A stretch of DNA of 64,000 nt from the NCBI GenBank assembly GCA_027484965.1, contig JAIXRY010000015.1:1622-65621 (forward strand), read 5' to 3'. The stretch comes from a bacterium (lineage in GTDB: Bacteria; Patescibacteriota; Minisyncoccia; Phycocordibacterales; UBA9973). The translations under genes were made by a program, and so were the position numbers. Every line of letters starts with the position of its first letter. Positions within the stretch are counted from its first letter, which is position 1. The notes below the pieces were generated by a model that ran no database searches, was not told the DNA's origin, and saw nothing but the letters and a program-made list of their open reading frames with translations. Shown in pieces: positions 18,986 through 47,184 of this stretch.

Positions 18986-19032
18986 AATTAAAAAACCAAC
19001 AATTCTGTTGGTTTTTTAATTTGTGGAAGTGG
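18975..19032. repeat. Long perfect inverted repeat (about 27 bp arms) that includes the tmRNA 3' acceptor end. Likely terminator.
   Basis: CCACTTCCACAAATTAAAAAACCAACA / TGTTGGTTTTTTAATTTGTGGAAGTGG. Confidence 0.55.
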
Positions 19033-21961: not shown

Positions 21962-24900
21962 ATGCAGAGTGGCTACACCAAAAACTTACGCGCATTTTTG
22001 CGGAAGAACAGCATCATTTTGTCGCTGGTATTTTTTGCTTTGTTTGGTACTGGTGTAAGTCTTTTTGCTGCTGCTCCAGATACTGAGCCATATCAACCAG
22101 GAGAGACTCTTGACCCCACATGTATTCCAGGTTCTTCAGTAAACTGTACAGTTCGAATATTACCTTCTCAAATTGGTAATGCTGGTAAATTTTTGACTAC
22201 AAACGGAACAACAACATCTTGGGCTTCAGTTCTCACTTCTCCATCTTTTTCTGATGTTACCCTTACAGGTAACACTACATTTCCATCCCTTTCAACTGCT
22301 GGGGGAATATTATACACAGATGGTTCTGGCGTTCTTGCTCAGTCTGCTGCAGGTATTGCTGGCCAAGCAGTTATTTCTGGGGGCGCTACTGGTCCAACAT
22401 ATTTTGCTCCAACATTAGGTTCAATACTTTTTGCTGGAACATCTGGAATTCTTTCTGAAAATAATTCAAATTTCTTTTGGGATAATACGAACAACAGACT
22501 AGGTCTTGGTACAAATACTCCAGTAACATTACTTAATATCGGGACAGGTACACCTACAACAGCTTCTAGTGGAATTCAGTTTGGTACAGATGTGCTTGCA
22601 AACCTATATCGTAACGATACAGGGAATATTAAAACAGATGGTGTTTTGAATGTGGGCGACCAATTGAACGTGGGGAACAGTTTAGATCTTACAGGTAATC
22701 TCTATTCTAGAGGCGATCTAAGACTTTTGAATAAAGCTGAAAATGGTTGGATTAGTTTTGCTACTCGCAACACTGCTGGACCAGAAGCTCTATATGACTT
22801 ATCAAATATTGGAACATTGTTTGCTAACCAAATTAATTCTTCTGGAACTATTAGTGCAACACTACCTTCAGGCTCATTTGGTACTATCGCTTCTTTTGGA
22901 GCAAATGGTGCTGCTGGTCTTATAAATATCGGATATGAAGATGGTAGTGGAATTAGTAGTATTACCGGCTCTGGTTTCGGACCTTTCCAAGTCGCTTCAT
23001 CTGCGAATAATAATATTATTATCAATCCAGGTAGTGGTAATGTGGGAATCGGAGCAGTGAGTCCTACTCAAAAATTGGAGGTGAATGGAAATATATTGGT
23101 AGGTGGCAGTAATGCATATTTGTATTTTAGAGATGAATATAATTACATTAAAAATGCTGATGGATTACCTGTAGATGTAAAAGGTCATCATGGAGTGCGC
23201 GCATACAATGATCTTGGGGAAGTTGCACGTTTTGGTACAGCGAGTGATTCTTTGAATTCTTACTTTAATGGAAATGTCGGTATTGGTTCTGTTACACCTT
23301 CCGCAAGACTTGAAGTTAAATCAGAATTAAATACAGACAGTGTTATTGCTATTAATACAAATTCTGTAGATTTTGATTCATACCTTTCACTTCAAGAAGC
23401 TGGTGTTGAAAAATGGAAATTCCGCAATCAAGGTGATAGTGGAGATAAGCTTCGTATTGGAAGTGCTACAAACCCTCTAGCAATTTCTGTTTCTCAAATG
23501 GGACAAATAAGTTTGGGTTCAACAACAGCTAGTGCTTGGTTGTATCTTCCAGCAAGTACTGGAGCTGGTCAAACTGCGCCACTTAAATTCACAGCAGGGA
23601 CAAATATTATATCTCCAGAAACAGGTGCTGTAGAATATGATGGTACTCAGCTATTTTTTACTCCAGCTTCTACTCGTAATATTTTGGCGCAAGTGTCAGG
23701 ATCTACAGCTCTTACTTCAGGATCTATTCCTTTTGCAACAACTTCAGGATATCTCACACAAGATAATTCAAATTTCTTCTGGGACGATACTAATAACAGA
23801 TTAGGTATTGGTACAGCGAGTCCAGCAACAGCATTGGATGTAAATGGTGTTGTTAAAGCCTCATTTCTAAGAGCAGATTATTTAAATACAACAAATAATG
23901 GAGCAACTATTATAGGTAATTTTACAAGTGAAAACCGTATTTATGACCAAGCTGGTACATGGTTAATGACTTTAAAATCAGGTAACGTCGGTATTGGTAC
24001 AACTAATCCAGGTTATAGATTAGATATTCTAGGTTCTAGTACGTCTGGTGTCTCTGCTTCAACTCAAATTCTCGGTGGAACAGGAACAAGTGCTGGTGGT
24101 CTTAGATTAGGTGCTTGGAGTGCTTCATACGGAGGATTTTGGTCTGCGAGTGTAATACCTTCATCTACTAACTATGCTCTTATTTCAAATGGTGCTGATA
24201 CAGCATTAAACACTACTTCAACTGGAGGAATTTATATAAACAATAGTACACAAGCTTTAGGGTGGAATATTAACGGAGTTTCAATCGGAGCAGCCGCTAC
24301 TAGTCAAGGACAGCTTGCTGTTATAAATCAAAATAATTCTCGTGTAGCTCTTGTAGTAAGAGCTACCACTTCTCAAACCGCAAATCTTACACAATGGCAA
24401 GATAATACAGGTGTTGTATTGGCTAGAATAGCTTCTAATGGTGCATTAAGTGTAGGTACAACTAACACCTCTGACCTGTATGGTGATTGGGGAGGTGCTG
24501 CTGAAATTCCAGCTGGTGCAGCCAATAGTTCTTCTAATGGTGGAATGTCTCTTTTTGCTGGGGGCACTACTCCTGGAACGAATAAAGCGGGTATTTACTA
24601 TTATCAAGGGGGTACACAATGGCGTTCAGCTGCAGAAGTTTCTAACACAACAAGCGGTTTTGGAAACCTTTTGCTTATGAAGTCTGGCGGTAACGTTGGT
24701 ATTGGTACAACAAGTCCAACCGCAAGACTAAATATTGTTGGAAATATTTTAGGACAAAGCTCTCTAACAGATGCAACAGCTAAAGACTTTTCTATAACTA
24801 CTGGACATCATACAAATTCAGAAGAATCTTTAGCGATGATTTCTGGTATTTCAAATGCTACACAAAATATTATATATTTAGGAGGTGGAAGTTCTTCTAA

Positions 24901-27900
24901 TAATACAGCTACTGATGTTCGTTTCTTTACAGCTGCAAACAACACAACAACTACAGGGACAGAAAGAATGAGAATATTATCAAATGGTAATGTCGGTATT
25001 GGAACAACAAATCCAGGATTCCCATTAGAAGTAGCGTCTAGTGGTACCAATGATACTGCAAGATTTTATGGGAATAGTGGTACAGCTCTTGTGTATGTTG
25101 GAGTAAACGGAACACTGGCTAGTGTAAGTGGTCAGTATAGAATTTATGCAAATAGTGGTATTCCTCTAACTCTAGGTGCTAACGGTATTCATAGTCAAAT
25201 GTTTATAAGTACTGCAGGCAATGTCGGTATAGGAACTACAAGTCCAGTAGGAAAACTAGATGTATCTGCTGGTCTTGGTTCTCAAACAGCTGGAGATTTT
25301 GTTGTAGATACTGCAAATAATATCGTGTATGTTGGTAAACTCGATAGTGTTTCAGGTAATACAAACTTTATCTTTAGAGATAGGTTGGGTGGTGTGAAAT
25401 CACGTTGGGAAAACGCAGGTTCTGGAAGTATTGGATTTTCTAATTTTAGTAACGGCTTTGGTGTAAGTATCGGTCCAACAATATCAGGTTCTATAGGGTC
25501 TATTGGAACAATGCTGTTAGTTCAAAATGCGAATGCTGGTTCTACTAATCCAACAGCGATATTTAGACAAGGCACAACTCAAACAGGTGACTTAATGCAA
25601 TGGCAAAATAGCGCAGGAACTGTTCTTGCTGAAATAGATGTTAATGGTTCTATGATAAACGACTCACTTTTCAGTCTTACTCATAATGCAACATCAAGAA
25701 CAGCAGTTGAAATTACAAAATCAAACGATGATGGTATATTAAATATTTATCGTGATGGTTCTATTGATACAAAAATTCAAGGTAATGGTAATTCATACTT
25801 TGCAAGTCTTAGTGGTGCTTTTGTAGGTATTGGTACTTCAAGTCCTTCTTATCCTCTTGATGTTACCGTTCCTACATCTGGTAGTTTTGCTCAAAGAATT
25901 ACTCGAAACACAGCAGCAACAACAAACTTTAATTCAACAAACATTCTAGTTTCAAGATCAACAGGAGACGCTGCTGACGGATTTGGAGGAGGTTCTGTAT
26001 ATGCTCTATCAGACAACACAGTAGGAGATACATTTCTGGGTTCTGTTGGTGCTGTGAGGGACGGCGCTGATAATTCTGGCGCTTTGGTTTTTAATACATA
26101 TATAACTGGTAGTTTCAATGAAAGAATGAGAATTACTTCATCAGGTCTTGTGTCTATTGGTGTAAACTCTGGTATAGCTCGATTGGGGGTAGTGAATGCT
26201 AATGCTGGAGGTGTTGCTATGATTGTAAGAGGAGCAGCTTCACAGTCTGCAAACTTAGTTCAATTTCAAGACGCTACTGGTACTGTTTTAAGTCGTGTAG
26301 CAGCGGATGGAAGTCTCCTTGTGAGAGAAGATTATACAACAGGTGCTGCTGTTTTAATGACATTTGCTGGAAATAGAGCTACTTATGGTATTGACTCTAA
26401 TTCAGATTTTTATATTGATACATCTGCTGCTAGAGGTACAGCAATAAAATCAGGTGGTGTAACAACATTGTATACATCATCTAATTCTACAGGAAACAAT
26501 ATAACTATTGGTTCAAATACTTCTATTGCTAAGTTTGGAGTTATAAACTCTAATGCTAGTACTGTTGCTTCTGTAATTCGTGGTACTACTTCTCAATCAG
26601 CAGATTTAACACAATGGCAAGATAACTCGGCTACAGTTTTAGGCGCAATTAAATCTAGTGGCGCAATGGTTATTGGTAATAGTGGTGCTCAAATTGGGTC
26701 TGTACCGCTCTCTGTTGTTGGTTCAGGGACAGATGCTTATATAGCAATGAAACCAGTAGGACAATCAGGATTTGGTTTTACCTTTGGTACACCTTCTGCA
26801 CAAAACTCTGAATTATGGAATTACGGAACTGGATTTATGCGTTTTGCAACAAACAATGCAGAATATATGAGAATTGTCTCAACTGGGGATGTAGGTGTCG
26901 GTACATCTACCCCTCTTACAGTAAACGGTATTTCTGTTGCAGGCGAGAGAGTATTAAATGTAAACGGTTCTGGTGGTACAAGACTCGCAGTACAGAGTGC
27001 GTCAGGTTCTAGTTTGGACTTCGTAAATACTGGAAACTCTACAAATGCAAAATGGGCATTATTCCAAAATCTTTCAAATAACTTCATTATTAAGTCTCAC
27101 ACTGACGCAGGTTCTACTCGCTTTACTTTCTTAACTGCTGATTTGACTACTGGCAATCTTACTGTGGGAAATTCTGGAATGGCAAAAACTTTGTCTTTAC
27201 AATCTGACAGAGCTAATATTATTGTAAGAGGTTCTACAGACGGAGGGACAGGTCCATTTATAGATTATGATATAAACTCAAGCTCTACAGCAGGTACTAC
27301 TTTTGCTCGTATTTCAAATGGTACACTGTCTGGCGCTACTTCAGGAACAAATATTGCTGTGGCGATGTCTCCAACATTTAATCCAGCTGCAGGAACAGGT
27401 GTGTTTAGAACTCTTGATATAAACTACACCACCAATGCAAGTGGCGCTCAAGGTGGTTCAATGACTGGGCTTCGTGTGAATAGAAATGTTCAAGGTGGCT
27501 CTACTGCATTTACTACAGACATGCTTGCAGATTTCCAAGCAGGAGGTCTCTCTCAATTTTCTGTGAGAGCTGATGGTGTAGTTACTATTGGGTCGTCTGG
27601 ATATTTAGTAACTCCAACAATATTTTCTGGTGGAGGAGGAACAACAGCGTTTGGTAATAGAGTATTGGTCGGTACTACTGGAACCACTACTGCACAACTA
27701 GAAACTAGGGCTGCATCTGCAACTACTGTTCCTTTGTTTGTAAGAGGTGCGTCTTCACAAACAGCAGACCTTCAGCAATGGCAAAGTAGCGACAGTACAA
27801 GATTGTTGTCAGTAAATAGTGCTGGTAATATCGTTATGCAAGCCACTTCAGACAAATACATATATGGTGGACCTGCAAGTGGAAACTATATCAATATGTA

Positions 27901-30052
27901 TAATTCATCAACAGGAAGAATACATTTAAAGGGATTAGGTACAGCTGGAGCTCAAATAGAGGGTGCTTTGGTTGTAGAAGGGGCTCTTAGCTTTAATGGT
28001 AATCTATCTCTTGCTAGTAATAGTATTTTAGGTACAAGTAATTCTGAAATACGTTTATATGACGGATCAACAGGTAATATTCAATTGCGAGCTGGTACTG
28101 GCTCAGTTGGTATATCACAAATTTCATTTTGGACCGGAACTACTCCTACAGAAAGAATGAAAATTGATAGTAGTGGTAATGTCGGTATTGGTACAACGAG
28201 CCCATCTGCTAGACTTCAAGTTAACTCAACTTCATCAGCTGTAGATCCACAGGTGATTGATATATCTACTGGTGGTTATGCTTCCAGTACTAATCATAAT
28301 GGACTAGTTTTGCAAAACAGTAATACAGCTACAAACAACAATCAACAATACGCACCGAGTATAGTATTTAGTGGTAATACTTGGTCTACTAATTCTTCGA
28401 CTGCGAACAATTCAAAATTAAGAATTGCACAGACTGGTGGTCAGACTTTTGCGCAAGGCAGGTCTTATCTGAGTTTTCAAAATAATGAAAACAATGGTGG
28501 TTGGAATACAATGATGCACCTAACTCCAGATACAGGATTGTTTGTAGGAGGTACAAATGGTATGGGAAATATTACTTCTTTAAACCTAACATTAGGTCCA
28601 AAATCTTCTTCAGGTACAATTGCTCAAGGTTCTATGATTTTTATGAGAATTGCATCAAACTTTAATCCGACATCAGGTACGGCAAATGCTTCAAACATTG
28701 ATACTACAGGTCTAGGATTTAATCCATCTTCAGGAAATGCAGAATTCAATGGGTACGCATATAGCATGTTAATAAGTCAAACAGGTAGTGCGGCTGGCAT
28801 CACTCGTGGAATGTATATTAATCCTAATTTGGCATCAGCAGCAGATTTCCGAGCAATAGAGATATCAAACAATAGTCATTATGGAATATATCAAAGTGGT
28901 GCAAGTGCAAAAAACTATTTCAATGGGAACGTCGGTATTGGAACAACATCTCCAGCAGAAAGATTTCATGTGTCAGGAAGTGATACTAGTGGTAGTGGGA
29001 TTGTCGCATTGGTTGAAAATACTGCAACAACAGGATCACCTTATGCTACCTTTAGAATGAAGTCATCTAATACGGTTTATGGGCAGTTCTTTGGCGGTGC
29101 TGTAAATGATCCTTATGGAATTGTAAATGGTATAACAATGACTCCAGGAACAAGTACTCAAGATATTGGTTTTCGAACTGGTAATCAGGTTACAGGTGGC
29201 GGAAATGGACCTTCAATGATTATTAAAGATAGTGGTAATGTAGGTATTGGGACAAAAGCACCAGGATACAAATTGGAAGTAGGTAGTGCAAGTGTGACTG
29301 GGATAGTGTCTCGATTTGTAAACTCTACTGGTACTTGTGATATTAATCCTACAACCACATCACTCTCTTGTTCTTCAGACCAAAATCTTAAGAAAAATAT
29401 TACTTCACTTTCAGATGAATTATTAACAAAAGTTATTTCACTTAGACCTGTAACTTATAATTGGAATAGTGAGACTACAGAGACTGTTGGTCATATTGGA
29501 TTTATAGCTCAAGAAGTTGAACAGATATTCCCAGATTTGGTGTCTACCGATTCTGTCTCAGGATTAAAATCCTTAAATTATATTGGCTTTATTCCTTACA
29601 TAACAAAAGCTGTTATAGAGCAAAATATAAAAGTATCACTCCTTGAAGATAGGGTTAAGGCTTTGGAAGATAAAATCAACGGAACAAATGGTTTAATTGG
29701 TGGAATTGTTAGCGATGTAAAAGATATGGTTGTGAGTACTTTGAAAGTTGGAACACCAGAAAAGAGAACTGGTATTACAATATACGACGAATCGACAGGT
29801 GATCCTTTCTGTATAAAAGTTGTAAACGGAAATATGCAAACAGTTCCAGGTGAATGTGCTGTAGTAAGTGCTCAAACACAAACAGTTCTTCCTGAAAATA
29901 GTCAAAACCAAAATATAAATGAAGAACTAATAAATGACTCTTCAAAAAATACAGACACAGCAGAAAAGATGATAACAGAAGACCAAACAACAGATCTGAC
30001 GGTTGAACCAATAATAGAAATACCTCAAACAGAAGAAATTGCCACAGAATAA
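21962..30052 (+). CDS. Giant (2696 aa) secreted or surface fibrous protein: N-terminal signal/TM, Gly/Thr/Ser/Asn-rich tail-fibre-like repeats, C-terminal intramolecular-chaperone (peptidase S74-like) domain
   Basis: N-terminal hydrophobic segment LSLVFFALFGTGVSLFAAAP. At least eight copies of GNVGIGTT(S/N)P...(R/K)L.V.G. At least five copies of SQ(S/T)A(N/D)L.QWQ...G.VL. The C-terminal segment (about 29370-29700) SSDQNLKKNI...L.PV.YNW.......HIGFIAQEVEQ.FP.LV matches the endosialidase / tail-fibre intramolecular chaperone family. Confidence 0.8.
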   Translation: MQSGYTKNLRAFLRKNSIILSLVFFALFGTGVSLFAAAPDTEPYQPGETLDPTCIPGSSVNCTVRILPSQIGNAGKFLTTNGTTTSWASVLTSPSFSDVTLTGNTTFPSLSTAGGILYTDGSGVLAQSAAGIAGQAVISGGATGPTYFAPTLGSILFAGTSGILSENNSNFFWDNTNNRLGLGTNTPVTLLNIGTGTPTTASSGIQFGTDVLANLYRNDTGNIKTDGVLNVGDQLNVGNSLDLTGNLYSRGDLRLLNKAENGWISFATRNTAGPEALYDLSNIGTLFANQINSSGTISATLPSGSFGTIASFGANGAAGLINIGYEDGSGISSITGSGFGPFQVASSANNNIIINPGSGNVGIGAVSPTQKLEVNGNILVGGSNAYLYFRDEYNYIKNADGLPVDVKGHHGVRAYNDLGEVARFGTASDSLNSYFNGNVGIGSVTPSARLEVKSELNTDSVIAINTNSVDFDSYLSLQEAGVEKWKFRNQGDSGDKLRIGSATNPLAISVSQMGQISLGSTTASAWLYLPASTGAGQTAPLKFTAGTNIISPETGAVEYDGTQLFFTPASTRNILAQVSGSTALTSGSIPFATTSGYLTQDNSNFFWDDTNNRLGIGTASPATALDVNGVVKASFLRADYLNTTNNGATIIGNFTSENRIYDQAGTWLMTLKSGNVGIGTTNPGYRLDILGSSTSGVSASTQILGGTGTSAGGLRLGAWSASYGGFWSASVIPSSTNYALISNGADTALNTTSTGGIYINNSTQALGWNINGVSIGAAATSQGQLAVINQNNSRVALVVRATTSQTANLTQWQDNTGVVLARIASNGALSVGTTNTSDLYGDWGGAAEIPAGAANSSSNGGMSLFAGGTTPGTNKAGIYYYQGGTQWRSAAEVSNTTSGFGNLLLMKSGGNVGIGTTSPTARLNIVGNILGQSSLTDATAKDFSITTGHHTNSEESLAMISGISNATQNIIYLGGGSSSNNTATDVRFFTAANNTTTTGTERMRILSNGNVGIGTTNPGFPLEVASSGTNDTARFYGNSGTALVYVGVNGTLASVSGQYRIYANSGIPLTLGANGIHSQMFISTAGNVGIGTTSPVGKLDVSAGLGSQTAGDFVVDTANNIVYVGKLDSVSGNTNFIFRDRLGGVKSRWENAGSGSIGFSNFSNGFGVSIGPTISGSIGSIGTMLLVQNANAGSTNPTAIFRQGTTQTGDLMQWQNSAGTVLAEIDVNGSMINDSLFSLTHNATSRTAVEITKSNDDGILNIYRDGSIDTKIQGNGNSYFASLSGAFVGIGTSSPSYPLDVTVPTSGSFAQRITRNTAATTNFNSTNILVSRSTGDAADGFGGGSVYALSDNTVGDTFLGSVGAVRDGADNSGALVFNTYITGSFNERMRITSSGLVSIGVNSGIARLGVVNANAGGVAMIVRGAASQSANLVQFQDATGTVLSRVAADGSLLVREDYTTGAAVLMTFAGNRATYGIDSNSDFYIDTSAARGTAIKSGGVTTLYTSSNSTGNNITIGSNTSIAKFGVINSNASTVASVIRGTTSQSADLTQWQDNSATVLGAIKSSGAMVIGNSGAQIGSVPLSVVGSGTDAYIAMKPVGQSGFGFTFGTPSAQNSELWNYGTGFMRFATNNAEYMRIVSTGDVGVGTSTPLTVNGISVAGERVLNVNGSGGTRLAVQSASGSSLDFVNTGNSTNAKWALFQNLSNNFIIKSHTDAGSTRFTFLTADLTTGNLTVGNSGMAKTLSLQSDRANIIVRGSTDGGTGPFIDYDINSSSTAGTTFARISNGTLSGATSGTNIAVAMSPTFNPAAGTGVFRTLDINYTTNASGAQGGSMTGLRVNRNVQGGSTAFTTDMLADFQAGGLSQFSVRADGVVTIGSSGYLVTPTIFSGGGGTTAFGNRVLVGTTGTTTAQLETRAASATTVPLFVRGASSQTADLQQWQSSDSTRLLSVNSAGNIVMQATSDKYIYGGPASGNYINMYNSSTGRIHLKGLGTAGAQIEGALVVEGALSFNGNLSLASNSILGTSNSEIRLYDGSTGNIQLRAGTGSVGISQISFWTGTTPTERMKIDSSGNVGIGTTSPSARLQVNSTSSAVDPQVIDISTGGYASSTNHNGLVLQNSNTATNNNQQYAPSIVFSGNTWSTNSSTANNSKLRIAQTGGQTFAQGRSYLSFQNNENNGGWNTMMHLTPDTGLFVGGTNGMGNITSLNLTLGPKSSSGTIAQGSMIFMRIASNFNPTSGTANASNIDTTGLGFNPSSGNAEFNGYAYSMLISQTGSAAGITRGMYINPNLASAADFRAIEISNNSHYGIYQSGASAKNYFNGNVGIGTTSPAERFHVSGSDTSGSGIVALVENTATTGSPYATFRMKSSNTVYGQFFGGAVNDPYGIVNGITMTPGTSTQDIGFRTGNQVTGGGNGPSMIIKDSGNVGIGTKAPGYKLEVGSASVTGIVSRFVNSTGTCDINPTTTSLSCSSDQNLKKNITSLSDELLTKVISLRPVTYNWNSETTETVGHIGFIAQEVEQIFPDLVSTDSVSGLKSLNYIGFIPYITKAVIEQNIKVSLLEDRVKALEDKINGTNGLIGGIVSDVKDMVVSTLKVGTPEKRTGITIYDESTGDPFCIKVVNGNMQTVPGECAVVSAQTQTVLPENSQNQNINEELINDSSKNTDTAEKMITEDQTTDLTVEPIIEIPQTEEIATE

Positions 30053-30094
30053 AAATAACTAGAGATAGTTATTTTTATTTGTTATAATTATTTT

Positions 30095-30688
30095 ATGAAA
30101 AAAGGTTTTACCCTTCTCGAGCTCCTCATTGTTATAGCAATCATAGGAGTACTCTCATCTATAGTTCTTGTAAGTTTGGGTAATTCCCGCGCAAAAGCCG
30201 ATACTGCTTTTGTAAAACAACAAGCAGATCAGATTAAAAAACAAATGGAATTATATTATCAACAATATGGTAATTATGGTTATTATGCTACCAACATGAA
30301 TATTCGTGGTGGGTATCAACCAGCAGGATATGCAGGATACGTCAATTTTCCAGGTGGCGCAGGGGATTGCTACGCCCCCTTTGCAAGACAAACTGTATCT
30401 GATACTCCGGGGACAATTAGTTATCAGATTGCTTTGATGGTTGGTAAAGCAATGCAAAAAACAAGTGATAATGTATTTTGGTGTTATATTTCACCAGACC
30501 AACAATCATACGCTTTTGCTTTTGTTGGTATGAAGACTGGTCCTAATACTTATTGTATTGATTCTAGTGGTAATGTTAAGGAGTCTAATACTGCAAATCT
30601 AACAACTCCTATAGGAAGCGTCATTGGTGGAACTTTGCAACGAGTTACGAATGCTGCATTACTAACTTCACCTGTGTCTTGTTTGTAA
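30095..30688 (+). CDS. Type IV pilin-like protein (prepilin, class III signal)
   Basis: MKKGFTLLELLIVIAIIGVL, with G|FTLLE at the prepilin peptidase site and Glu5. Confidence 0.85.
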   Translation: MKKGFTLLELLIVIAIIGVLSSIVLVSLGNSRAKADTAFVKQQADQIKKQMELYYQQYGNYGYYATNMNIRGGYQPAGYAGYVNFPGGAGDCYAPFARQTVSDTPGTISYQIALMVGKAMQKTSDNVFWCYISPDQQSYAFAFVGMKTGPNTYCIDSSGNVKESNTANLTTPIGSVIGGTLQRVTNAALLTSPVSCL

Positions 30689-30760
30689 TTTAAACCTATA
30701 CACTCTGGGTATGCGGACATTAATTAAAAAACCTCCTTTTGTGGAGGTTTTTTAATTAAT

Positions 30761-30779
30761 GTCCGCCCTCTTGGATTCG
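30761..30779. repeat. 19-bp direct repeat of the tRNA-Ile(TAT) 3' end (att-like scar). The partner is at 32412-32430.
   Basis: GTCCGCCCTCTTGGATTCG is identical at both positions. The upstream copy is embedded in a long palindrome (30713-30768). Confidence 0.6.
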
Positions 30780-31428
30780 CCCGCGACTAATTAGTTTGCA
30801 AACTAATTGTCTGGGCACCAGCTCGTCTATTTTTCTGCTGAAAAATATGACTCCGCTGTTCGAAACCAAACGTACATGAAGCAGTTTATGTACTTAGGGC
30901 GAACCCTCGTTTCACTCGTGTCCACTCTGAATATTCTACTTCGAACCAAATTGAATGTGGATTCAAGTTTTTATCTGTTGAAATAGAGAAAATTAGAAGT
31001 GAACTAAAATCATTAAATTCATTATTAGTTATTGATGAGGATAATCGTTAGGTATTATTGATATTTTCCATTACTTTTGGAGTGAACAATCATCCAAATA
31101 AAGAATTGGTTAGGTTTCGATATGAAACACAATTAAACTCATAAATAAAAATAATTCAATTTTTGGTTAATGTTAAATTAGTTGTGCTTATAATTTTCAT
31201 AACACCCTAGTTGAATTTGGGCTAACTAAATTATATTTAAATATATTGACTTTATAAAAAAAGTAGAGATAAATCTGGTTAATTGTTTTGGTGTTGGCAG
31301 TTTTGATTATACTTTCGATTTTGAAGGTTTAAAAACAAATTCATTATTGAAAATACTGCAATTATTTTGTGGCTTTTTTAATTTCAATAAAATAAAAAAA
31401 GACACAACTAAAAGTCATGTCTTATATA

Positions 31429-32007
31429 TTAATTCGAATAAATTTCCTTCCGTATGTACTTCTCAAATTCAATTGGAAACTTATCCTGAGGCCAACCCCT
31501 TAATGCAGTACGAACTGCAAGTTTATATGACTCCTTCCATGTTCCTTTGAAACTATATAAATCTGGGAAGTTTTCGAAATCTTCTAGAGTTTCGATTTTA
31601 AATAATGCCGAACCATCTGTTTTAAGGTAAACATCAATAGTTTTATCTTTTGCGTCATAAAATATTGATGGAGGGAATTTACATAAAAGAATTACTCCTT
31701 GTTTTTGTAGAATTTCAGAGTCTAGTTCTGTAATAATGGCGCTGGTGTTTTTACCGGGTAGGTTTTTAAATATGCTTACCCAATTTTTTAAAGTTGGAAG
31801 CATCTGGTTAAAATCAAAAAGTTTAATTTCTATTGGGTCAATGGTAATTACTTTCTCACTTAAAATGTCTTTAAGTAAAGGTAACTGACCTAGAAAAAAA
31901 CATAATTCTAATTTTTGTTCTGGTGTTAGAGGTTGTTCTGTTTCGATTTGTTTCTTAATTTCCTTAAAGATTGTCAAATCCTTAATTGTTAAAATTAATG
32001 TATTCAT
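31429..32007 (-). CDS. Hypothetical protein (192 aa), the only ORF between the direct repeats
   Basis: Long ORF with no recognised motif. It is flanked by AT-rich non-coding DNA. Confidence 0.45.
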   Translation of the reverse strand: MNTLILTIKDLTIFKEIKKQIETEQPLTPEQKLELCFFLGQLPLLKDILSEKVITIDPIEIKLFDFNQMLPTLKNWVSIFKNLPGKNTSAIITELDSEILQKQGVILLCKFPPSIFYDAKDKTIDVYLKTDGSALFKIETLEDFENFPDLYSFKGTWKESYKLAVRTALRGWPQDKFPIEFEKYIRKEIYSN

Positions 32008-32409
32008 ATTGTAAATGCTTGATTTACAACAGCATACACCTTTAACTACTTAGTGTCAATAATAAATTACCTATTACAATAGTAGAGAGAAATAATTCAT
32101 ATAAAAATCAGTCTTTATTTTAAGGTGAAATAATTTGTCCAGGTAGGTCAAAAAAGTTGAGTATTATTACCTTAAAAGTACAGCAAAAAACTATCACAAA
32201 ATTTTTGTCATAAATTGTGGTATTTGTTATAACAGAAATAAGTAATAACCTAAATAAGACTTTATCTAAATTTATCAAGTTTGTTGTTATAAAGATACAG
32301 TGGTTCGAATTTCCTGAAGGAATAGTCTTTGATGGAAACAAATTTTGAACCAACAAAATATGCAGTATTTTTAAGGTAAATGAGTTATTTTACGCAATTG
32401 ATTCCAAAA

Positions 32410-32486
32410 TGGTCCGCCCTCTTGGATTCGAACCAAGGACCCCAGAGGTATAAGCTCTGTGCTCTAACCAACTGAGCTAAGGGCGG
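32410..32486 (-). tRNA. tRNA-Ile (anticodon TAT / UAU), CCA encoded
   Basis: Manual fold gives a 7-bp acceptor CCGCCCT/AGGGCGG, D-arm GCTC-AGTTGGTTA-GAGC, anticodon stem CAGAG/CTCTG with loop CTTATAC, and T-arm CTTGG-TTCGAAT-CCAAG. Confidence 0.7.
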
Positions 32487-32605
32487 ATGTGTCATTTATT
32501 AACTAAAATTGTTAATCTGTTAATGACTGTAATTATAGATTAAAAATCAACAATTATCAACAATATGTAAATTATATCATTAAAATGGTATAATTTATTG
32601 GTAGT

Positions 32606-33172
32606 ATGAATAAATCTAATAAAGCATTTACACTCATCGAACTCCTTATAGTTATTGCAATCATTGGCGTTCTTGCGTCTGTTGTTCTTGCAAGTCTTAA
32701 TTCTTCTAGGAATAGAGCTGATGCGGCTTTTGTAAAACAACAAGCAGATCAGATTAAAAAAGAATTTGAAATTTACTATGCTTCAAATGGAAATAGATAT
32801 GGCTTCTGGGCAAGTAATATGAATTTACAGAGTCCATATACATCAGCCGGGTTTACAAGTATCCACGCAGGTGCTGGTCATTGTTATGTACCTTTTGGAA
32901 GAGTGGATACAAATATTACAAGAATGGTAGGTAAGGCAATGGAAAAAACAAATATTAATTTGACTGGAGGTAGTAATGGGGGAGGTGTTGGTTTTGGTTT
33001 CTGGTGTAGAGTATCTCCAGATGGTCAATCTTACGCATTCGCTTTTGTTAATATGAAGAGTGGTCCAAATATTTATTGTGTTGATTCAAGTGGAAATATA
33101 AAAGAATCTAACAATGCTTCTAGTGTTGATCCTATTAGTACTCATATGGCAAATCCTGTGACTTGTATATAA
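32606..33172 (+). CDS. Type IV pilin-like protein (paralogue of 30095..30688; shares AFVKQQADQIKK)
   Basis: KAFTLIELLIVIAIIGVL prepilin motif. Confidence 0.85.
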   Translation: MNKSNKAFTLIELLIVIAIIGVLASVVLASLNSSRNRADAAFVKQQADQIKKEFEIYYASNGNRYGFWASNMNLQSPYTSAGFTSIHAGAGHCYVPFGRVDTNITRMVGKAMEKTNINLTGGSNGGGVGFGFWCRVSPDGQSYAFAFVNMKSGPNIYCVDSSGNIKESNNASSVDPISTHMANPVTCI

Positions 33173-33212
33173 TTTATACATAAGTCTTTTTTGTTATAAT
33201 ATAAATACAATT

Positions 33213-33746
33213 ATGTTTAGTAATAAAAAAGCATTTACTCTTTTGGAACTCCTTGTTGTCATTGCGATCATCGGCGTTCTTGCGGCTATTGTGATGGCAA
33301 GTTTGAATAGTGCGAGAGTGAAAGCAAGAGATGCGCGTCGTCTTCAAGATATAAAAACCATCCAGACTAATTTAGAAATATATTACAATACATATAATAG
33401 TTATCCGCCAACTCCTACAGGTGGATGGATTCATAGTTCAGAAACAACATGGGATGGTCTAGAAAATTCTATGGGCATGAAATTGCCAAGAGACCCTGTA
33501 AATCAGGCTTCACCTTGGTTAAATGATCAATCTAGAGCATGGTCTTCAGATCAAAGGTTATTCATGTACGATTATTTGTCAGGAAGCGTACAGAATGGGT
33601 GTGCTACAGGAACTTTTTATTGGCTTGTCTATCGTCTTGAAAAAGGGAATACTCCTGTAAATGAAAGTCCAGGTGTTTTTATGTGCGATGGATCTACTTT
33701 TAAAGCTGTAAATGGTGCAATAACTGTTGGTGCGAATTCAAAATAA
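33213..33746 (+). CDS. Type IV pilin-like protein
   Basis: KKAFTLLELLVVIAIIGVLAAIVMASLNSARVKARD. Confidence 0.85.
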   Translation: MFSNKKAFTLLELLVVIAIIGVLAAIVMASLNSARVKARDARRLQDIKTIQTNLEIYYNTYNSYPPTPTGGWIHSSETTWDGLENSMGMKLPRDPVNQASPWLNDQSRAWSSDQRLFMYDYLSGSVQNGCATGTFYWLVYRLEKGNTPVNESPGVFMCDGSTFKAVNGAITVGANSK

Positions 33747-33782
33747 AAATCATATTTTAAAAAATCTGTTATAATTAATAGT

Positions 33783-34250
33783 ATGAAAAAAGGATTCACT
33801 CTCCTCGAACTCCTAGTCGTCATTGCAATCATTGGCGTTCTTGCTGCTATTGTTATGGCGAGCTTAAATAGCGCTAGAGTGAAATCAAGAGACGCAAAAC
33901 GAGTGTCTGATATACGACAAATTAAAGTTGCGCTTGATTTGTACTTTAACGATTTTGGATATTATCCTGATTGTTCTGGTAATGATGTATGTTCCAGTAC
34001 TGGATACTCTGGTTCTATATATAATTTAAGTATTGTTCCAAACTATATAAAAAATATAAGTAGTGACCCTAGAAATATATCAGGTCAGTATGGTTATTAT
34101 TATGCAAGGACTTACAAGAAGGCGGGGAGTAGTTATATATATACAGGATTAAGTACAGATTATATACTTGCTACAAGACTTGAAAATACAAGTAATGGAT
34201 CATTTGGGGGTTGGGACAATAACTTTTTAAACTATATAGAAGGAAATTAA
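33783..34250 (+). CDS. Type IV pilin-like protein
   Basis: MKKGFTLLELLVVIAIIGVLAAIVMASLNSARVKSRD. Confidence 0.85.
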   Translation: MKKGFTLLELLVVIAIIGVLAAIVMASLNSARVKSRDAKRVSDIRQIKVALDLYFNDFGYYPDCSGNDVCSSTGYSGSIYNLSIVPNYIKNISSDPRNISGQYGYYYARTYKKAGSSYIYTGLSTDYILATRLENTSNGSFGGWDNNFLNYIEGN

Positions 34251-34297
34251 AACTAAATGTATATTTAACTATGTATTAAAAATGTTATAATTATTTT

Positions 34298-34792
34298 ATG
34301 AAAAAAGCCTTTACTTTAATAGAGCTTCTTATAGTTATAGCAATCATTGGTGTTCTTGCTTCTATTATTCTTGCAAGTCTTAATTCTTCTAGAGATAAAG
34401 GTTCTGATACTGGAATGAAGACTGCTATTAATAGTCTTCGTTCTGCCGGTAATATTATCTTTAACGAGTATGGTTGTTTTGCTGGTTCTAGTGGGGGTTG
34501 TAATGGTACAAACCTTGGACCAGGAGCATGTTCTACACCAGGAAGTACTATTTTTAGTAATTTAGAATTTGCAAAAATAACTGCTCCTTATAGAACTAGT
34601 AGTGATTTTATAACTTCATGTAGTTCAACAACAGGTCAAACAGCTTGGGCTATTGCTATTAGACTTAAAAGTAATACAACAAAAGCATGGTGTGTTGATT
34701 CGCTTAATACCGCAAAAGAAATAAGTAATGGCGGAACAGCTTTTAATCAGACAACATTAAATAATGCTATTGTTGGAGGTGTTTGTAGTTAA
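34298..34792 (+). CDS. Type IV pilin-like protein
   Basis: MKKAFTLIELLIVIAIIGVLASIILASLNSSRDKG. Confidence 0.85.
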   Translation: MKKAFTLIELLIVIAIIGVLASIILASLNSSRDKGSDTGMKTAINSLRSAGNIIFNEYGCFAGSSGGCNGTNLGPGACSTPGSTIFSNLEFAKITAPYRTSSDFITSCSSTTGQTAWAIAIRLKSNTTKAWCVDSLNTAKEISNGGTAFNQTTLNNAIVGGVCS

Positions 34793-38915: not shown

Positions 38916-38980
38916 GTATTTAATGTATAGATTTGATAGGTGAGTGTCAAATTTAAGGTTGTATTTTTTTTGTAGATATT

Positions 38981-39037
38981 GGGACTCGCTGACTACATCG
39001 GTCAGTACTTTTTAATACAGGACTCGAACCAGTAATC
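38981..39037. repeat. Copy A of a short palindromic interspersed repeat (GGGACTCGCTGA(C/T)TACATC(G/A)G...) plus a tRNA-Asp-3'-end-like segment GGACTCGAACCAGTAA
   Basis: Shares 40 to 60 bp with copies at 39671-39738 and 39851-39925. Also 17/19 identity to the tRNA-Asp 3' half at 50366-50386. Confidence 0.5.
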
Positions 39038-39043
39038 TATATT

Positions 39044-39598
39044 TTAAATTCCTTTAAGAATCATTTCCATTTCTGGTATAACAGCACCACTCTTCATTTT
39101 AAACCTTTCTTCTGAAAAACGTTTTCCTGTATCTTTAAAACCTAACTTTTTATAGAATTCAATCGCATTCGTGTTGTATATAGCAACATCCACAACAGTA
39201 TCTTTATTCAAATCAAGAATAGTTTTAGCTTGATTCCAAAGTAGCGAACCAACACCCTTTCCTTGATATTCAGGTTTTATATAAATTAGACTTAATCTGT
39301 TTCCTTGTGTATTTTTTTCGATACGACAAATACCAAGTATGTTATTTGCATTTTTTGCAACAAAAAAAGTTTCACCCTCAGGAGGGTTTGTAATCGTTTC
39401 AATTCTTTTTTGTATTTTTTCTTCAGTGAATGCATTTTTAAATTTATCTTCAATGTCATCAATAGTTATTCCGAATTCTTCATTTGGATATGTAGTAAGC
39501 CATGTCTTATAAAAAACTTCTTGAATTTCTTTTGCATCATCTGGTTTTGCTAATAAAATCTTCACGTCCATTTTTTCTTGGTTTATTATCTTTTCCAT
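39044..39598 (-). CDS. GNAT-family N-acetyltransferase
   Basis: Acetyl-CoA binding motif A IYIKPEYQGKGVGSLLW. Confidence 0.75.
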   Translation of the reverse strand: MEKIINQEKMDVKILLAKPDDAKEIQEVFYKTWLTTYPNEEFGITIDDIEDKFKNAFTEEKIQKRIETITNPPEGETFFVAKNANNILGICRIEKNTQGNRLSLIYIKPEYQGKGVGSLLWNQAKTILDLNKDTVVDVAIYNTNAIEFYKKLGFKDTGKRFSEERFKMKSGAVIPEMEMILKGI

Positions 39599-39670
39599 CT
39601 ATATATTATATCAGCTCTAAAGTTCTATCACTATAAATAAAAACATCTAAGAAGAACTCAAATAGATACT

Positions 39671-39738
39671 GAGACTCTCTGATTATATCAGTAAGCACTT
39701 TTCAATCTCGTAAACTCGATAATGAAAAGTCTTTCGAT
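39671..39738. repeat. Copy B of the palindromic interspersed repeat
   Basis: GAGACTCTCTGATTATATCAGTAAGCACTTTTCAATCTCGTAAACTCGATAATGAAAAGTCTTTCGATG aligns with copy C at high identity. Confidence 0.5.
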
Positions 39739-39850
39739 GATTGAACTCGATCCTTACAGGATCAGTACACCTTTTCGATATATTCGAAACATATTTCTCA
39801 TATATAACGAAAAGCTTTTCGAGTCCCGCACGTAAGCCATGCAGATGGAC

Positions 39851-39925
39851 GGGACTCGCTGATTACATCAGCAGGTACTTTTCAATCTCATAAATTCGAT
39901 AATGAAAAGTCTTTCAAGTCCCGAC
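39851..39925. repeat. Copy C of the palindromic interspersed repeat. A reverse-orientation GAGTCCCG lies at 39821-39828.
   Basis: GGGACTCGCTGATTACATCAGCAGGTACTTTTCAATCTCATAAATTCGATAATGAAAAGTCTTTCAAGTCCC. Internal stem GGGACT...AGTCCC. Confidence 0.5.
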
Positions 39926-39963
39926 GTGAGTGAAGCAGTTCACTCACTACCTTTCTGTGTATT

Positions 39964-40003
39964 AAATAAAAATAACTGAGAAGAACTCAGTTATTTTTAT
40001 TTA
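39964..40003. terminator. Palindromic terminator downstream of the minus-strand TA pair
   Basis: AAATAAAAATAACTGAGAAGAACTCAGTTATTTTTATTT. Confidence 0.5.
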
Positions 40004-40090
40004 TGCGCGGACTAGTAAACGATGTGGGAACTGCGATACGACAACGTAATGGTTATATTTATATACCAACCTTAAAATAAAAATCTCAAA

Positions 40091-40549
40091 TTAGTCTATT
40101 TTTGTATATCCGTATGCAAAAAAAGATTTTAACCTTCCTATAGTTTCTCCTTGAAACTCGACCTCGCTATCCTTAACTTCCTTTTTATGTTTTATTGAAG
40201 CAAGAACTATATGCTTACCATTGATACAATACATAATTCTTAAGCCATAACGAGCACCTTCCTTATCTACTGCCCATCTCATTTTCCAAAGAACCCAATC
40301 TTCTGATAAAAATGGCTGTTGTCCATTTTTATCATTATTAGGTATTTCATTTGGTGTACTGAACTTATTTTTAATTGTACTTGAAATCTGCCTTAAAATT
40401 GGAATAGTAGATATTTTCTCTGAAACAGAAAGTTTTTCGAACTCATCCTGAGTTAAGTCACACTCTAAAAAAGTGGGTTTTATATGTTTAGAAAGTTTTT
40501 TGACGTCTTTCCAAAAATCAGGGCAAGTAAATAGGGTGCAATCATCCAT
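40091..40549 (-). CDS. Candidate toxin: 152-aa protein with a C-terminal RelE/ParE-fold-like core, encoded directly downstream of the Panacea-domain gene
   Basis: C-terminal GARYGLRIMYCINGKHIVLASIKHKKEV resembles the RelE/ParE beta-sheet core (yRi.Y.i....i.il.i.H.k). The roughly 90-aa N-terminal extension is of unknown function. A 9-bp gap separates it from the upstream gene. Confidence 0.4.
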   Translation of the reverse strand: MDDCTLFTCPDFWKDVKKLSKHIKPTFLECDLTQDEFEKLSVSEKISTIPILRQISSTIKNKFSTPNEIPNNDKNGQQPFLSEDWVLWKMRWAVDKEGARYGLRIMYCINGKHIVLASIKHKKEVKDSEVEFQGETIGRLKSFFAYGYTKID

Positions 40550-40558
40550 TTTAGTAAT

Positions 40559-41077
40559 CTAAGCATTTTGATAATCAGGATATTCTTCAACCAAGTTGTA
40601 AGCGGTATTATATTCTACTACTCCTCCTTCATTAGCTGAAAGATAAGGTATTTGTTTGTGAGTAATATCTGCCAATATATTATAAGAATAGTTTGCGTAT
40701 TTATTTAAAACATACTTAACTGTTTTAATCTCCTTAGCATCTAGCCCTACATTAACATTATCTTTTGGGCAATACTCAAACTGACCTTTCTTTTCTATTA
40801 GACCACTACGTACAAGTACGTTTAGATCGGCATTAAAGGAACGCGCCAAAGGACCATATGTTCTCTTTTCATAAATACTTTCAATGTCAGAAATCGGTTC
40901 ATCATTAAAAGCATAGTGAATAAAATCAGAAAAGTATTGAAACTTTGCTAATTTAATTTTATCGTCAATACCGTTAGTTTCTTGAATTATTGTATATAGA
41001 AGTTTTTGAGATTTAGTGAGGTCCATACTTATATTATTATACACTAATCTAGTAAAGGAATGTAATTCCAAAATCAA
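40559..41077 (-). CDS. Panacea-domain (DUF4065, SocA-like) putative antitoxin. True start probably MDLTKSQ.
   Basis: QKLLYTIIQ...KRTYGPLARSF follows the KLqKLLYf...W.yGPv pattern of DUF4065. Confidence 0.5.
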   Translation of the reverse strand: MILELHSFTRLVYNNISMDLTKSQKLLYTIIQETNGIDDKIKLAKFQYFSDFIHYAFNDEPISDIESIYEKRTYGPLARSFNADLNVLVRSGLIEKKGQFEYCPKDNVNVGLDAKEIKTVKYVLNKYANYSYNILADITHKQIPYLSANEGGVVEYNTAYNLVEEYPDYQNA

Positions 41078-41229
41078 GTGTGAATAACATAATATAGTAT
41101 AATTTATATTATGTCAAGTATTATAGTACTTTGTCAGTCATTATAAAATTAAAGACAAGCATAAAACTACTTTTTTATATTTAAAACTTTCTTAACTTAA
41201 TGATATCAATCAATAAAGAATGGTCAAGA

Positions 41230-43521
41230 TTAAATTAAAATATCACTCAAGTTTTTCCAACCCTTAAGAGCTGTGGTGTACTCATATTCGGCGCTAGTAT
41301 TGATTTTCCAGCCATTTGAGCCATCTTGAACAGCTATACCGCCATAGTAACCTTTCTTACTTTTGAGCCACGCTTGGAGCGATTCAGCGCGTTCTTTCGC
41401 CCCTTTTGCAGTATCTCCACCTTTAGTATCAATAATGTAGATACCTTTTTTAGTTTTTATAATCCAATCAGGGTAAAACAAACTCTCTTTATTCTTTGTT
41501 GTGTCGTGATAGGGAATAGAAAAAAACTCGCTACCTAAATCACCATTCTTATACCACCAAATAATAGAGTCATTTTCTTCAAGAGATTTTATAAAGTTTG
41601 TTTCATTTTTTCTGCCAGTATATTCTTTCTCAATAAAAAATGGTTGCATAGCACTTTTCTTAACTTTCATTTCTTCATATTGGTCAGTATAAAAAAGTGA
41701 TGGTCTTGGTATTTCAATTTGTTCGGTCCTCTTTGAGCGATCTGATTTACGGTTTACTTCTTGCTCTCGAATCGGACGATATGTCGCTAATGCTTTACCG
41801 ATAACATTACTTAAAACACTATTTACCTTTAGAAAATCACCGACAACAATATGGTATATTTCTAATCTTTGTTCTTTCAATAATCCAAGAAGCCACACAT
41901 TCAAAGCGGTCTTTAATTTACCCCAAGAACGCTCTGGAGCAAACTTTTTATCCTCATCAATTTGCTTAGCAATACTATTGAAACAAAACAGATTATATAA
42001 TCTTTCTAAATCGTGCTGAGACATTTCTTGCTCATAACTACTACCTTCAGCAAGAAGCTCTTGTTTGAAGTTATCGTAATCATCAATCTCAACATCAACA
42101 ATCAAACCATTCGTCACTCTTTTATTTAAGACAAGTTTCTTATCAGTCAATTTTTTTATGATATTTGCTTTTGTGTCTTTCTCAGAAATACTAAAATACT
42201 CATTAGCTGTTTCCTTGAAAGTTTCTTGAAAACTATCACCTAAGTCATTGTAATCAGTTCGGCTCATAAACACAGAATCAAGGACTATTGGCTCAACAGA
42301 CGGGTTACGATAACTACTATTTATTGCTGGTCTATTTTGGTCAGCAGATTTTGAATATCCTACAAGCACCTCATTGCGTTTATAGTTTGTATATAAATAA
42401 CCAAGATTAAGTTCTGGTATTGCGAAATGTGTACCTAGTGGCATACGCAATATACGCCCTACTGTTTGAATAGCAAAAGTAGCATTCTTTATTTCTCTAA
42501 ACATAACTAAGACACTTGCTCGTGGACAATCCCAACCAGTAGCTACTGCTTGTTTAAATAGTAAAAAAGAAACTGGAGAATTGTGACTTTCTATATCCTT
42601 AAGATTAACCTTGTCGTCAGATAGCCAGACCGCTATTTCGTCTTCTGTAATACCTTTAGCTTTTAGAAAACTAATAATGAAACCTTGTTTATTATCATTT
42701 GTACCCTTACTTGCTTTGTCATCGTTTGGTAATTGAATTAAAACTAAAGGATTTATATCAAGTTTTAGTTTATCCTTATAAAAATCTAAAAGTTCTTTTC
42801 TTTTATTAAAAGCTAAAGTGAGTAATGCATCACTATCATTCAAATCTTTCATTTCTTCTAAATCTTCTTTTGTTTGAAAAACGATTTTCTCTTTAATCAA
42901 TCCCTCTCTAACGACATCTTTGCGATCCACATCAACAGTAATACCTTTGGTTTGAGGAGTAGCAGAAACACCAATAATGATTCTTGGCTTAATAACATTC
43001 TTGATTAAATCACTCGCTAGAACTGTATCTGAAGCAATATGTTCTTCATCAATAATCAACACAACATCACGCTTAAGTAAATGTGTGTTTTCTAAATACA
43101 TATCAAAAGTAGTATTAGCTTCACCTTCAGTACGAAGTTTCCTATTGTCTTTTGATCTTGAAACAAGTTTTTGCCAGTTTATAAAAAACACTCCATTTTT
43201 AGGTAGATTCCCGTCTCGTAAATTATTCATATCCACAAGAGGATTTTCACTCGCTCCACCATAATAAGAAAAAAGTTTCTCTTTTGACTGCATTGCGAGA
43301 GAATCTGAGTTTGTTATCCAAATAAAACTAACATTAGCACTAGAAAATCTTGGATCAGAAACAATATCTCTTAAGAACTGAGCCATCATTATTGTTTTAC
43401 CTGAACCAGTAGGAGATTTGAAAGTCAGGTTCACATTAGTATCGCCAAGTTTCCATAAAGTTAGAAACTTATCTTTAAGTTGTGATATGGCTGTTTCTTG
43501 AAATGGTTTTAGTGTAAGCAT
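41230..43521 (-). CDS. res: Type III restriction enzyme Res subunit (SF2 helicase plus C-terminal PD-(D/E)xK nuclease)
   Basis: Helicase motif I KSPTGSGKT. DEAH-like LIIDEEH. C-terminal nuclease motif YPDW...IYIIDTKG (PD...D.K). Immediately downstream of mod in the same operon. Confidence 0.7.
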   Translation of the reverse strand: MLTLKPFQETAISQLKDKFLTLWKLGDTNVNLTFKSPTGSGKTIMMAQFLRDIVSDPRFSSANVSFIWITNSDSLAMQSKEKLFSYYGGASENPLVDMNNLRDGNLPKNGVFFINWQKLVSRSKDNRKLRTEGEANTTFDMYLENTHLLKRDVVLIIDEEHIASDTVLASDLIKNVIKPRIIIGVSATPQTKGITVDVDRKDVVREGLIKEKIVFQTKEDLEEMKDLNDSDALLTLAFNKRKELLDFYKDKLKLDINPLVLIQLPNDDKASKGTNDNKQGFIISFLKAKGITEDEIAVWLSDDKVNLKDIESHNSPVSFLLFKQAVATGWDCPRASVLVMFREIKNATFAIQTVGRILRMPLGTHFAIPELNLGYLYTNYKRNEVLVGYSKSADQNRPAINSSYRNPSVEPIVLDSVFMSRTDYNDLGDSFQETFKETANEYFSISEKDTKANIIKKLTDKKLVLNKRVTNGLIVDVEIDDYDNFKQELLAEGSSYEQEMSQHDLERLYNLFCFNSIAKQIDEDKKFAPERSWGKLKTALNVWLLGLLKEQRLEIYHIVVGDFLKVNSVLSNVIGKALATYRPIREQEVNRKSDRSKRTEQIEIPRPSLFYTDQYEEMKVKKSAMQPFFIEKEYTGRKNETNFIKSLEENDSIIWWYKNGDLGSEFFSIPYHDTTKNKESLFYPDWIIKTKKGIYIIDTKGGDTAKGAKERAESLQAWLKSKKGYYGGIAVQDGSNGWKINTSAEYEYTTALKGWKNLSDILI

Positions 43522-43525
43522 AAAA

Positions 43526-45214: not shown

Positions 45215-45216
45215 AA

Positions 45217-45362: not shown

Positions 45363-45477
45363 TTTTATACCGTATCTATCAATTTTTACATTAAATAGAC
45401 CTTAGGTAAATTAAATTGTCTTGTCTTTTTAGGACAATTTTAGTATAGCAAAAAACACTTAATTTTCATAGTCAAAT

Positions 45478-47181: not shown

Positions 47182-47184
47182 TCT

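Follow-up and report, generated by a model that had tools for sequence, protein, structure and literature searches.

Genomic islands that reside in tRNA and tmRNA genes occupy two classes of site, one in the T-stem region and one centred on the anticodon (1836 and 2083 islands, respectively), and the displaced 3′ gene fragments outnumber the 5′ fragments 3760 to 159 (PMC4383910). Tyrosine integrases are the only recombinase family known to target these genes (PMC4383910). In streptococci, cis-mobilizable elements (CIMEs) have lost their integration and transfer genes and retain attL and attR (PMC5704250). Here, we describe a segment at the tRNA-Ile(UAU) gene of a Patescibacteria (candidate phyla radiation, CPR) bacterium, located in a 64-kb stretch of contig JAIXRY010000015.1 (assembly GCA_027484965.1), hereafter called the window, to which all coordinates refer unless a contig is named. 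The segment, positions 30780–32411 plus one copy of a 19-bp core, is very likely a horizontally acquired mini-island of a non-autonomous, CIME-like kind, site-specifically inserted in the 3′ end of the tRNA gene.

The tRNA-Ile(UAU) gene lies on the minus strand at 32410–32486 (ARAGORN; Rfam tRNA model, 69.4 bits) and is the only such gene in the window. The 19-mer GTCCGCCCTCTTGGATTCG occurs inside it at 32412–32430 and again at 30761–30779; these are the only two matches in the 64 kb with up to three mismatches allowed, and shuffled sequences give an expectation of zero. The perfect direct repeat of the tRNA 3′ end reported in the initial annotation was therefore exact in both positions and unique in the window, and the approximately 1.65 kb said to lie between the copies amounts to 1,632 bp, or 1,651 bp with one core included. 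On the tRNA strand, the 19-mer spans the T-loop, the 3′ strand of the T-stem, the 3′ acceptor strand, A73 and C74. The copy within the gene, from the T-loop to C74, constitutes an attL-type junction, and the copy at 30761–30779, the displaced native tRNA 3′ end, an attR-type junction. The latter lies 3′ of the tRNA gene in matching orientation, which is the geometry expected of a displaced att fragment, and its boundary falls in the T-loop region, one of the positions (T-stem/loop or anticodon) recognized by Islander.

The site without the island was found on contig L175 from a sister strain (Logan sample SRR30952577), reached through P0046, the second member of the 90%-identity cluster of the pilin encoded by gene A (30095–30688, plus strand), the chromosomal left flank of the island. 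L175 is 95–96% identical to the window across the C-terminus of a giant protein, pilin gene A and the terminator, and 95.9% identical over 30104–30779, which holds pilin gene A, the terminator and the 19-mer. After pilin gene A and the terminator, L175 reads aattaatGTCCGCCCTCTTGGATTCGAACCAAGGACC and then ends. Past the 19-mer, it continues with AACCAAGGACC, belonging to the T-arm of the tRNA, and not with the island's CCCGCGAC, so that it matches window positions 32412–32441 at 30 of 30 bases. L175 thus consists of the bases to the left of the window's left junction, the core and the bases to the right of its right junction. Given that the two junctions recombine exactly into this sequence, L175 corresponds to the attB expected of a precise island insertion, and the uninterrupted site was both rebuilt from the junctions and found in a relative, with 30 nt of the tRNA visible. 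The contig stops exactly 31 nt past its last flank-specific base, as expected of a 31-mer assembly graph where other organisms share the tRNA; the k-mer size is itself deduced from this contig end. With 31-mers, a repeat of 19 bp could not create the L175 join by itself.

Comparison of the junctions also distinguishes two versions of the tRNA end. The native end (30760–30779, and likewise in L175 and in the syntenic contig L005) reads ...GGCGGACA and does not encode CCA, whereas the end supplied by the island, GGCGGACCA, does; the difference lies at 32410–32413 (island end) versus 30759–30761 (native end). The last bases of the present tRNA gene, from inside the 19-bp core on and including the encoded CCA, are consequently island-derived.

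Contigs that carry the island place it on different flanks. Across the window and contigs L002 (assembled in four samples), L003 and L004, all 21 differences fall within 30287–30742 (4.6% divergence) and none from 30743 to 32755, and the island (30780–32411) is 100% identical in all four. L003 (SRR30952585) equals L175 at 573 of 573 bases of pilin gene A, terminator and core, and its switch of haplotype lies inside the 37 nt shared around the core, as predicted for an L175 allele to which the island has been added. The left flank of L002 is a mosaic, L175-like up to 30664 and window-like from 30695. An identical island on flanks that have diverged by about 5% implies that gain, loss or exchange was recent, as opposed to a long history of vertical inheritance, and its presence on three flank haplotypes differing by at most 4.6% points to recent spread, with the caveat that these contigs were assembled from mixed-strain metagenomes, in which chimerism is possible.

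The island encodes no recombinase; ORF192, its sole sizeable open reading frame (ORF), belongs to no Pfam family. This agrees with the initial view that the segment was too small to encode an integrase and makes the island non-autonomous. The term decayed, used for it initially, may be too strong given the lack of any island difference across flanks diverged by up to 4.6%. The idea of an integrative element bracketed by a duplicated tRNA 3′ end gains support from L175, from L003, from the reciprocal junctions, from the missing recombinase and from a homologue of ORF192 on a mobile-element-like contig, described below. Between the insertion and the duplication-plus-insertion offered at the outset, L175, which lacks the island, argues for insertion, and a duplication is unneeded.

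Like the islands catalogued by Islander, the mini-island is marked at its ends by a regenerated tRNA gene and a displaced 3′ fragment in the same orientation, with the break in the T-loop region, and its two junctions recombine into the insertion-free sequence. Unlike them, it has no integrase, measures only 1.65 kb, carries a single gene and resides in a CPR bacterium, and it would fail Islander's integrase filter. With CIMEs, it shares att-like repeats at a tRNA 3′ end, here perfect 19-bp attL and attR copies, around cargo only, without integration or transfer genes. It is far smaller than the CIMEs described, no accretion partner is present, and its link to an integrative and conjugative or integrative mobilizable element consists of one cargo gene shared with a contig bearing ArdC, RadC and SSB genes, with the similarity limited to 31391–32032.

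On these grounds, the crossover would have taken place somewhere in the stretch of the tRNA-Ile(UAU) gene that runs from the T-loop to C74. The island's own copy of the tRNA end, CCA included, would have re-formed the complete tRNA at 32410–32486, leaving the native end at 30761–30779 still fused to the terminator that it shares with pilin gene A. The reaction was probably of the tyrosine-integrase type, with the enzyme presumably supplied in trans. The mini-island may be what is left of a larger element or, alternatively, a miniature one that depends on such a trans-supplied integrase to move; an identical island on three flanks, and the same flank with and without it, are consistent with mobilization by the integrase of another element. 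The island end that abuts the displaced fragment is formed by X′ (30776–30865, minus strand), a 90-nt structured module of two hairpins that scores 61 bits (E 2e-12) with a covariance model, CM R1, built for the wider family X, and that may have a role in the island.

Several observations weigh against this interpretation. No tyrosine recombinase was found among the 25 window proteins tested, and no integrase among the 25 listed of the 47 Pfam families from the 39 ORFs downstream of the tRNA in 79 related species. In IMG/VR, no contig holds the 19-mer, and ORF192 has no match there, nor in phage or plasmid collections. L175 shows only 30 nt of the tRNA, enough to establish that the island is absent from this junction but not that a whole tRNA lies beyond it, and L003, a contig from a mixed-strain metagenome, could be chimeric through the 37 nt common to the haplotypes. 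Moreover, L005 has a 19–22-nt repeat and a homologous terminator around only 135 bp, without any gene, and a partial 3′ copy of the tRNA lies within 170 nt of the gene in about 20 of the 79 related species. Given these short-range copies in L005 and in roughly a quarter of the species, repeats at this tRNA may be old, and cargo could have entered an older scar.

The chief competing explanation builds on this last point. It holds that the island is an old relic without present site-specific mobility, that an ancient integration left the repeats, that the island-free allele arose by deletion between the 19-bp repeats or by homologous exchange and that the island moves among strains solely by homologous recombination after DNA uptake; it leaves the nature of the object unchanged, and we regard it as possible though clearly the less probable course of events. 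The repeat and terminator that already surround a gene-less 135-bp remnant in L005, which is about 80% identical to the window, fit this history, as do the homologous exchange in pilin gene A seen in the mosaic flank of L002, the failure to find an integrase and the location in a heavily rearranged pilin cluster. However, L003 has the sequence of L175 with the island added and changes over within the 37 shared nucleotides, as would be expected from site-specific gain or loss. No similarity to the island was seen in the inner 135 bp of L005, a gap-tolerant alignment matching only the 20-mer and the terminator, and precise deletion between 19-bp repeats, while possible, is uncommon. A different account, which we favoured at first because of the 135-bp spacing in L005 and the short-range copies, treats the distal 19-mer as one component of a tRNA trailer module, conserved in the lineage and older than the island, that comprises X, the tRNA 3′ copy and the terminator; the repeat would then not be an att duplication. 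The partial copies in about 20 of 79 species, the conserved and structured nature of X and the approximately 90% conservation of the 19/20-mer and terminator between the window and L005 are compatible with it. It was overturned by L175, where the terminator abuts the tRNA directly, with neither X′ nor a second copy; X′ must therefore have arrived with the island, the distal 19-mer must be the native tRNA end, and the account is now very improbable.

Nor do we think it likely that a recombinase of another type inserted the island, be it the large serine recombinase encoded at 48729–50384 or a structure-recognising or RNA-guided reaction that uses X′. In favour of this idea, no recombinase other than that serine enzyme was seen in the 64 kb; its gene belongs to a separate island of 11.4 kb next to tRNA-Asp. 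X, for its part, is found with partial tRNA-Ile and tRNA-Ser copies and, in L035, past the tmRNA gene. Yet serine integrases leave a shared core of only 2 bp, not a 19-bp repeat, and 10 of 13 X arrays lack a displaced tRNA copy after X. The restriction of known integration into tRNA and tmRNA genes to tyrosine integrases (PMC4383910) likewise speaks against it. Finally, every sequence used here comes from metagenome assemblies, which could raise the suspicion of a chance repeat or an assembly artefact; since no chance match is expected, independent assemblies of several samples gave the occupied arrangement, and a repeat shorter than 31 nt cannot alone cause false joins if contigs were built from 31-mers, this is extremely unlikely. 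Site-specific insertion of a non-autonomous element is thus the reading that we retain.

The occurrence of the 19-mer elsewhere was surveyed in one genome per GTDB species. It was present in 83 stretches, nearly all from Patescibacteria, 82 of which are tRNA-Ile(UAU) genes, contig-truncated forms of them or adjacent partial 3′ copies, and one (L049) of which is unrelated. The scenario named initially as fatal to an att duplication, a generic repeat at many unrelated sites, does not apply, and the window is the only case of a distant copy among the 79 species. The partial copies, seen in L005, L014, L018, L019, L024, L025, L034, L035, L036, L057–L060, L066, L071 and L083, begin in the T-loop or at the anticodon loop, matching the two crossover classes on record for tRNA and tmRNA gene islands (PMC4383910). 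Some of them carry a 9–37-nt hairpin inside the T-loop, and in some species the acceptor stems of the full tRNA and the fragment differ (CCGCCCT/AGGGCGG versus GGGCGTG/CACGCCC). Another conserved module, GGGTCGGGAGAAC...GTGGAGGAAGG...GGGAAAACCGTGGGTTTCC, lies downstream of tRNA-Ile in L021 (6800–6910), L075, L086 and L053, all metagenome-assembled genomes, some labelled Saccharibacteria; L053, labelled Parcubacteria, has the module reversed. In L021, L075 and L086, the module opens with a stretch complementary to the tRNA 3′ end and closes with a 13–14-nt copy of that end, degenerate in L075 and L086. At a distance of a few kilobases from tRNA-Ile in several species (L039, L040, L047, L071, L083, L087 and others), ARAGORN also reported divergent pairs that combine tRNA-Ser(GCU) with an unusual ‘tRNA-Ser(ACU)’.

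The 1,632 bp between the repeats, which are absent at the L175 junction, have a GC content of 28.6%, compared with 34.6% for the window. The non-coding parts of the island, at about 26% as against 32.7% for other intergenic DNA, are indeed the AT-rich filler that had been described. Of the degraded tRNA-like fragments proposed there, CTTCGAACC is present at 30939–30947; an Rfam scan of 30000–33300 at E≤10 revealed nothing tRNA-like apart from the tRNA-Ile gene, so that such fragments are no more than an impression. ORF192 (31429–32007) lies on the minus strand, that of the tRNA. Judged by sequence motifs, the gene is predicted to be a self-contained cassette with a promoter-like site of its own, TTGACA-17-TATGCT, at 32031–32059 (minus strand; consensus match only), and an intrinsic-terminator-like hairpin with a T-run directly past its stop codon at 31399–31423 (minus strand). 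It probably represents accessory cargo.

The only part of the island that resembles any other fetched sequence is 31391–32032, which covers ORF192 with its terminator and some of its 5′ untranslated region and is 86% identical in nucleotides to contig L001. There, the closest homologue of ORF192 (83% identical) is found beside genes for RadC, the anti-restriction protein ArdC, SSB, a helix-turn-helix repressor and a PtuA-like ATPase. The ArdC/RadC/SSB/PtuA set gives L001 the appearance of a mobile element, and no tRNA or att-like sequence was found on it. Although ORF192 had been called an orphan, its relatives form about 55 clusters at 50% identity. The suggested search against immunity and effector families gave no match in Pfam, PADLOC, PHROGs, PDB sequence profiles or solved folds. 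Its AlphaFold2 model has a predicted local distance difference test score of 85.6 when built from an alignment, again without a fold match, and of 39 from the single sequence.

X′ is the sole CM R1 match in the window and aligns with a module that lies directly downstream of tRNA-Ile in many Patescibacteria. This module, X, measures 70–100 nt and consists of two hairpins, with the invariant motifs CGGAG and CGAG linking them. In its alignment, which was fitted to the model and so favours structure, 98% of the cells are paired and 16 of the 18 pairs are compensatory, with slid controls reaching at most 47%; the G-U pairs are compatible with the tRNA-sense strand only. On 660 kb of related loci, CM R1 detected 21 significant copies (E≤1e-4), and 24 at E≤1, mostly beside tRNA-Ile(UAU); one lies past a tmRNA gene (L035), and another within a displaced 5′ tRNA-Ser copy, in its D-loop (L083, 5709–5778). 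The loci with X are the window, L012, L021, L030, L031, L035, L036, L037, L041, L045, L051, L070, L072, L083, L090 and L092. X has no match in Rfam 15 at the gathering score, at E≤10 (window 30000–33300) or at E≤1 (four X-bearing loci). RNase P RNA, signal recognition particle RNA, hammerhead ribozymes, group II intron domain V and class II tRNAs were considered as identities and none fitted by eye, in agreement with Rfam. A significant tRNA 3′ copy follows X in only 3 of the 13 arrays (window, L070 and L072), none in the other 10, and X is accordingly not always bracketed by repeats; it was also not found near other ORF192 homologues.

X′ could be an att-arm or other cis-acting site, or an RNA carried by the island. 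We tentatively suggest, as an idea that may well prove wrong, that tRNA and tmRNA genes across Patescibacteria are targeted by a family of miniature integrative elements that lack an integrase, with X as their cis-acting core or as an RNA that they carry. If so, the element in the window would be an example that carries a cargo gene and is still polymorphic, and the short arrays elsewhere (tRNA, hairpin, X and, in some, a tRNA copy) would be cargo-less members or remnants. Integron attC sites are conserved in structure and variable in sequence. By analogy, X may be comparable to them in its covarying hairpins with differing stem sequences, its strand bias and its position at the edge of a cassette-like unit. 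It is unlike them in its invariant CGGAG/CGAG junctions, in the lack of an integron integrase and in its association with tRNA and tmRNA genes, and it is equally a candidate non-coding RNA. Of the components of the locus, the X module is the one that could prove new.

On the chromosomal side, the island is flanked by pilin gene A and, on its right, by pilin gene B (32606–33172, plus strand). All five genes from 30095 to 34792 encode the N-terminal methylation motif PF07963 and are therefore type IV pilin-like. The flanking pair had been regarded as near-identical paralogues with a long identical N-terminal stretch; the two proteins in fact share 50% amino-acid identity with 18% gaps, and only 36 nt are identical (30206–30241 and 32726–32761), in a region of about 73% identity elsewhere, which looks like gene conversion. 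The notion that the insertion split a pilin tandem also had to be abandoned, since the L175 junction and L005 show that the tRNA natively lies between pilin genes. A metagenome scan with pilin A returned matches dominated by pilin N-termini and nothing closer than 49% identity, and the orthologues of pilin B in relatives adjoin RecG and yielded no tRNA junction. The syntenic L005 encodes the giant protein, 12 pilins, RecG, DoxX and Inositol_P, with the tRNA inside the pilin array, and gene order in the array is reshuffled relative to the five pilin genes of the window. Directly upstream of the array, the gene at 21962–30052 (plus strand) encodes a 2,696-aa protein and is variable among strains, being 80–95% identical in nucleotides to L175. 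In many Patescibacteria (for example, L011, L022, L052, L068, L078 and L087), tRNA-Ile(UAU) and recG are convergently oriented, and the tRNA gene directly adjoins the recG stop codon (...HFE*); pilin genes separate the two in the window and L005.

Directly outside the distal 19-mer lies the native terminator common to pilin gene A and the tRNA, a hairpin at 30713–30766 with perfect 24-nt arms and one of the palindromes noted initially. With its A-run, GC stem and T-run, it can terminate transcription in both directions, and the final 7 nt of the tRNA pair as part of its outer stem, a design shared by L005 and L175. Such a lengthening of the terminator by the last bases of the tRNA (CGGAC plus 2–3 nt), which pair with a downstream complement, is seen in the window, in L005 (7567–7628) and downstream of the tRNA in L012, L037, L072 and L090, and the extra pairing bases covary among loci (AA/TT, GAG/CTC, ATG/CAT). 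Upstream of the tRNA, a promoter-like site, TTGATA-17-TATAAT, is located at 32532–32560 (minus strand; 11 of 12 consensus matches).

Elsewhere in the window, a second island of 11.4 kb (38916–50355) is absent from the syntenic relatives L005 and L007. It contains genes for a GNAT protein, a SocA/Panacea antitoxin, a type III restriction-modification pair (Res plus methylase), the serine recombinase and two proteins without a Pfam family, as well as a LOOT RNA (45279–45408). The recombinase ORF (48729–50384) extends into the 3′ end of tRNA-Asp (50357–50431). A tmRNA gene is present at 18606–18986 (plus strand; Rfam, 160 bits).

As an event, a small islet without an integrase at a tRNA gene is of an ordinary kind, here in an unusual host group. 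A limited literature search on integrative elements of Patescibacteria found nothing specific, and little appears to be documented about such mobile elements in these bacteria. Together, the occupied and the island-free junctions narrow the attachment site to 19 bp, and, given that both junction forms come from one public sample series, gain, loss and circular forms can be counted in reads. X, which covaries without an Rfam match and recurs beside tRNA and tmRNA genes in many Patescibacteria, merits a study of its own. For the host, insertion of the island alters the end of the tRNA-Ile(UAU) gene, in that the CCA becomes encoded and the native terminator is separated from the tRNA.

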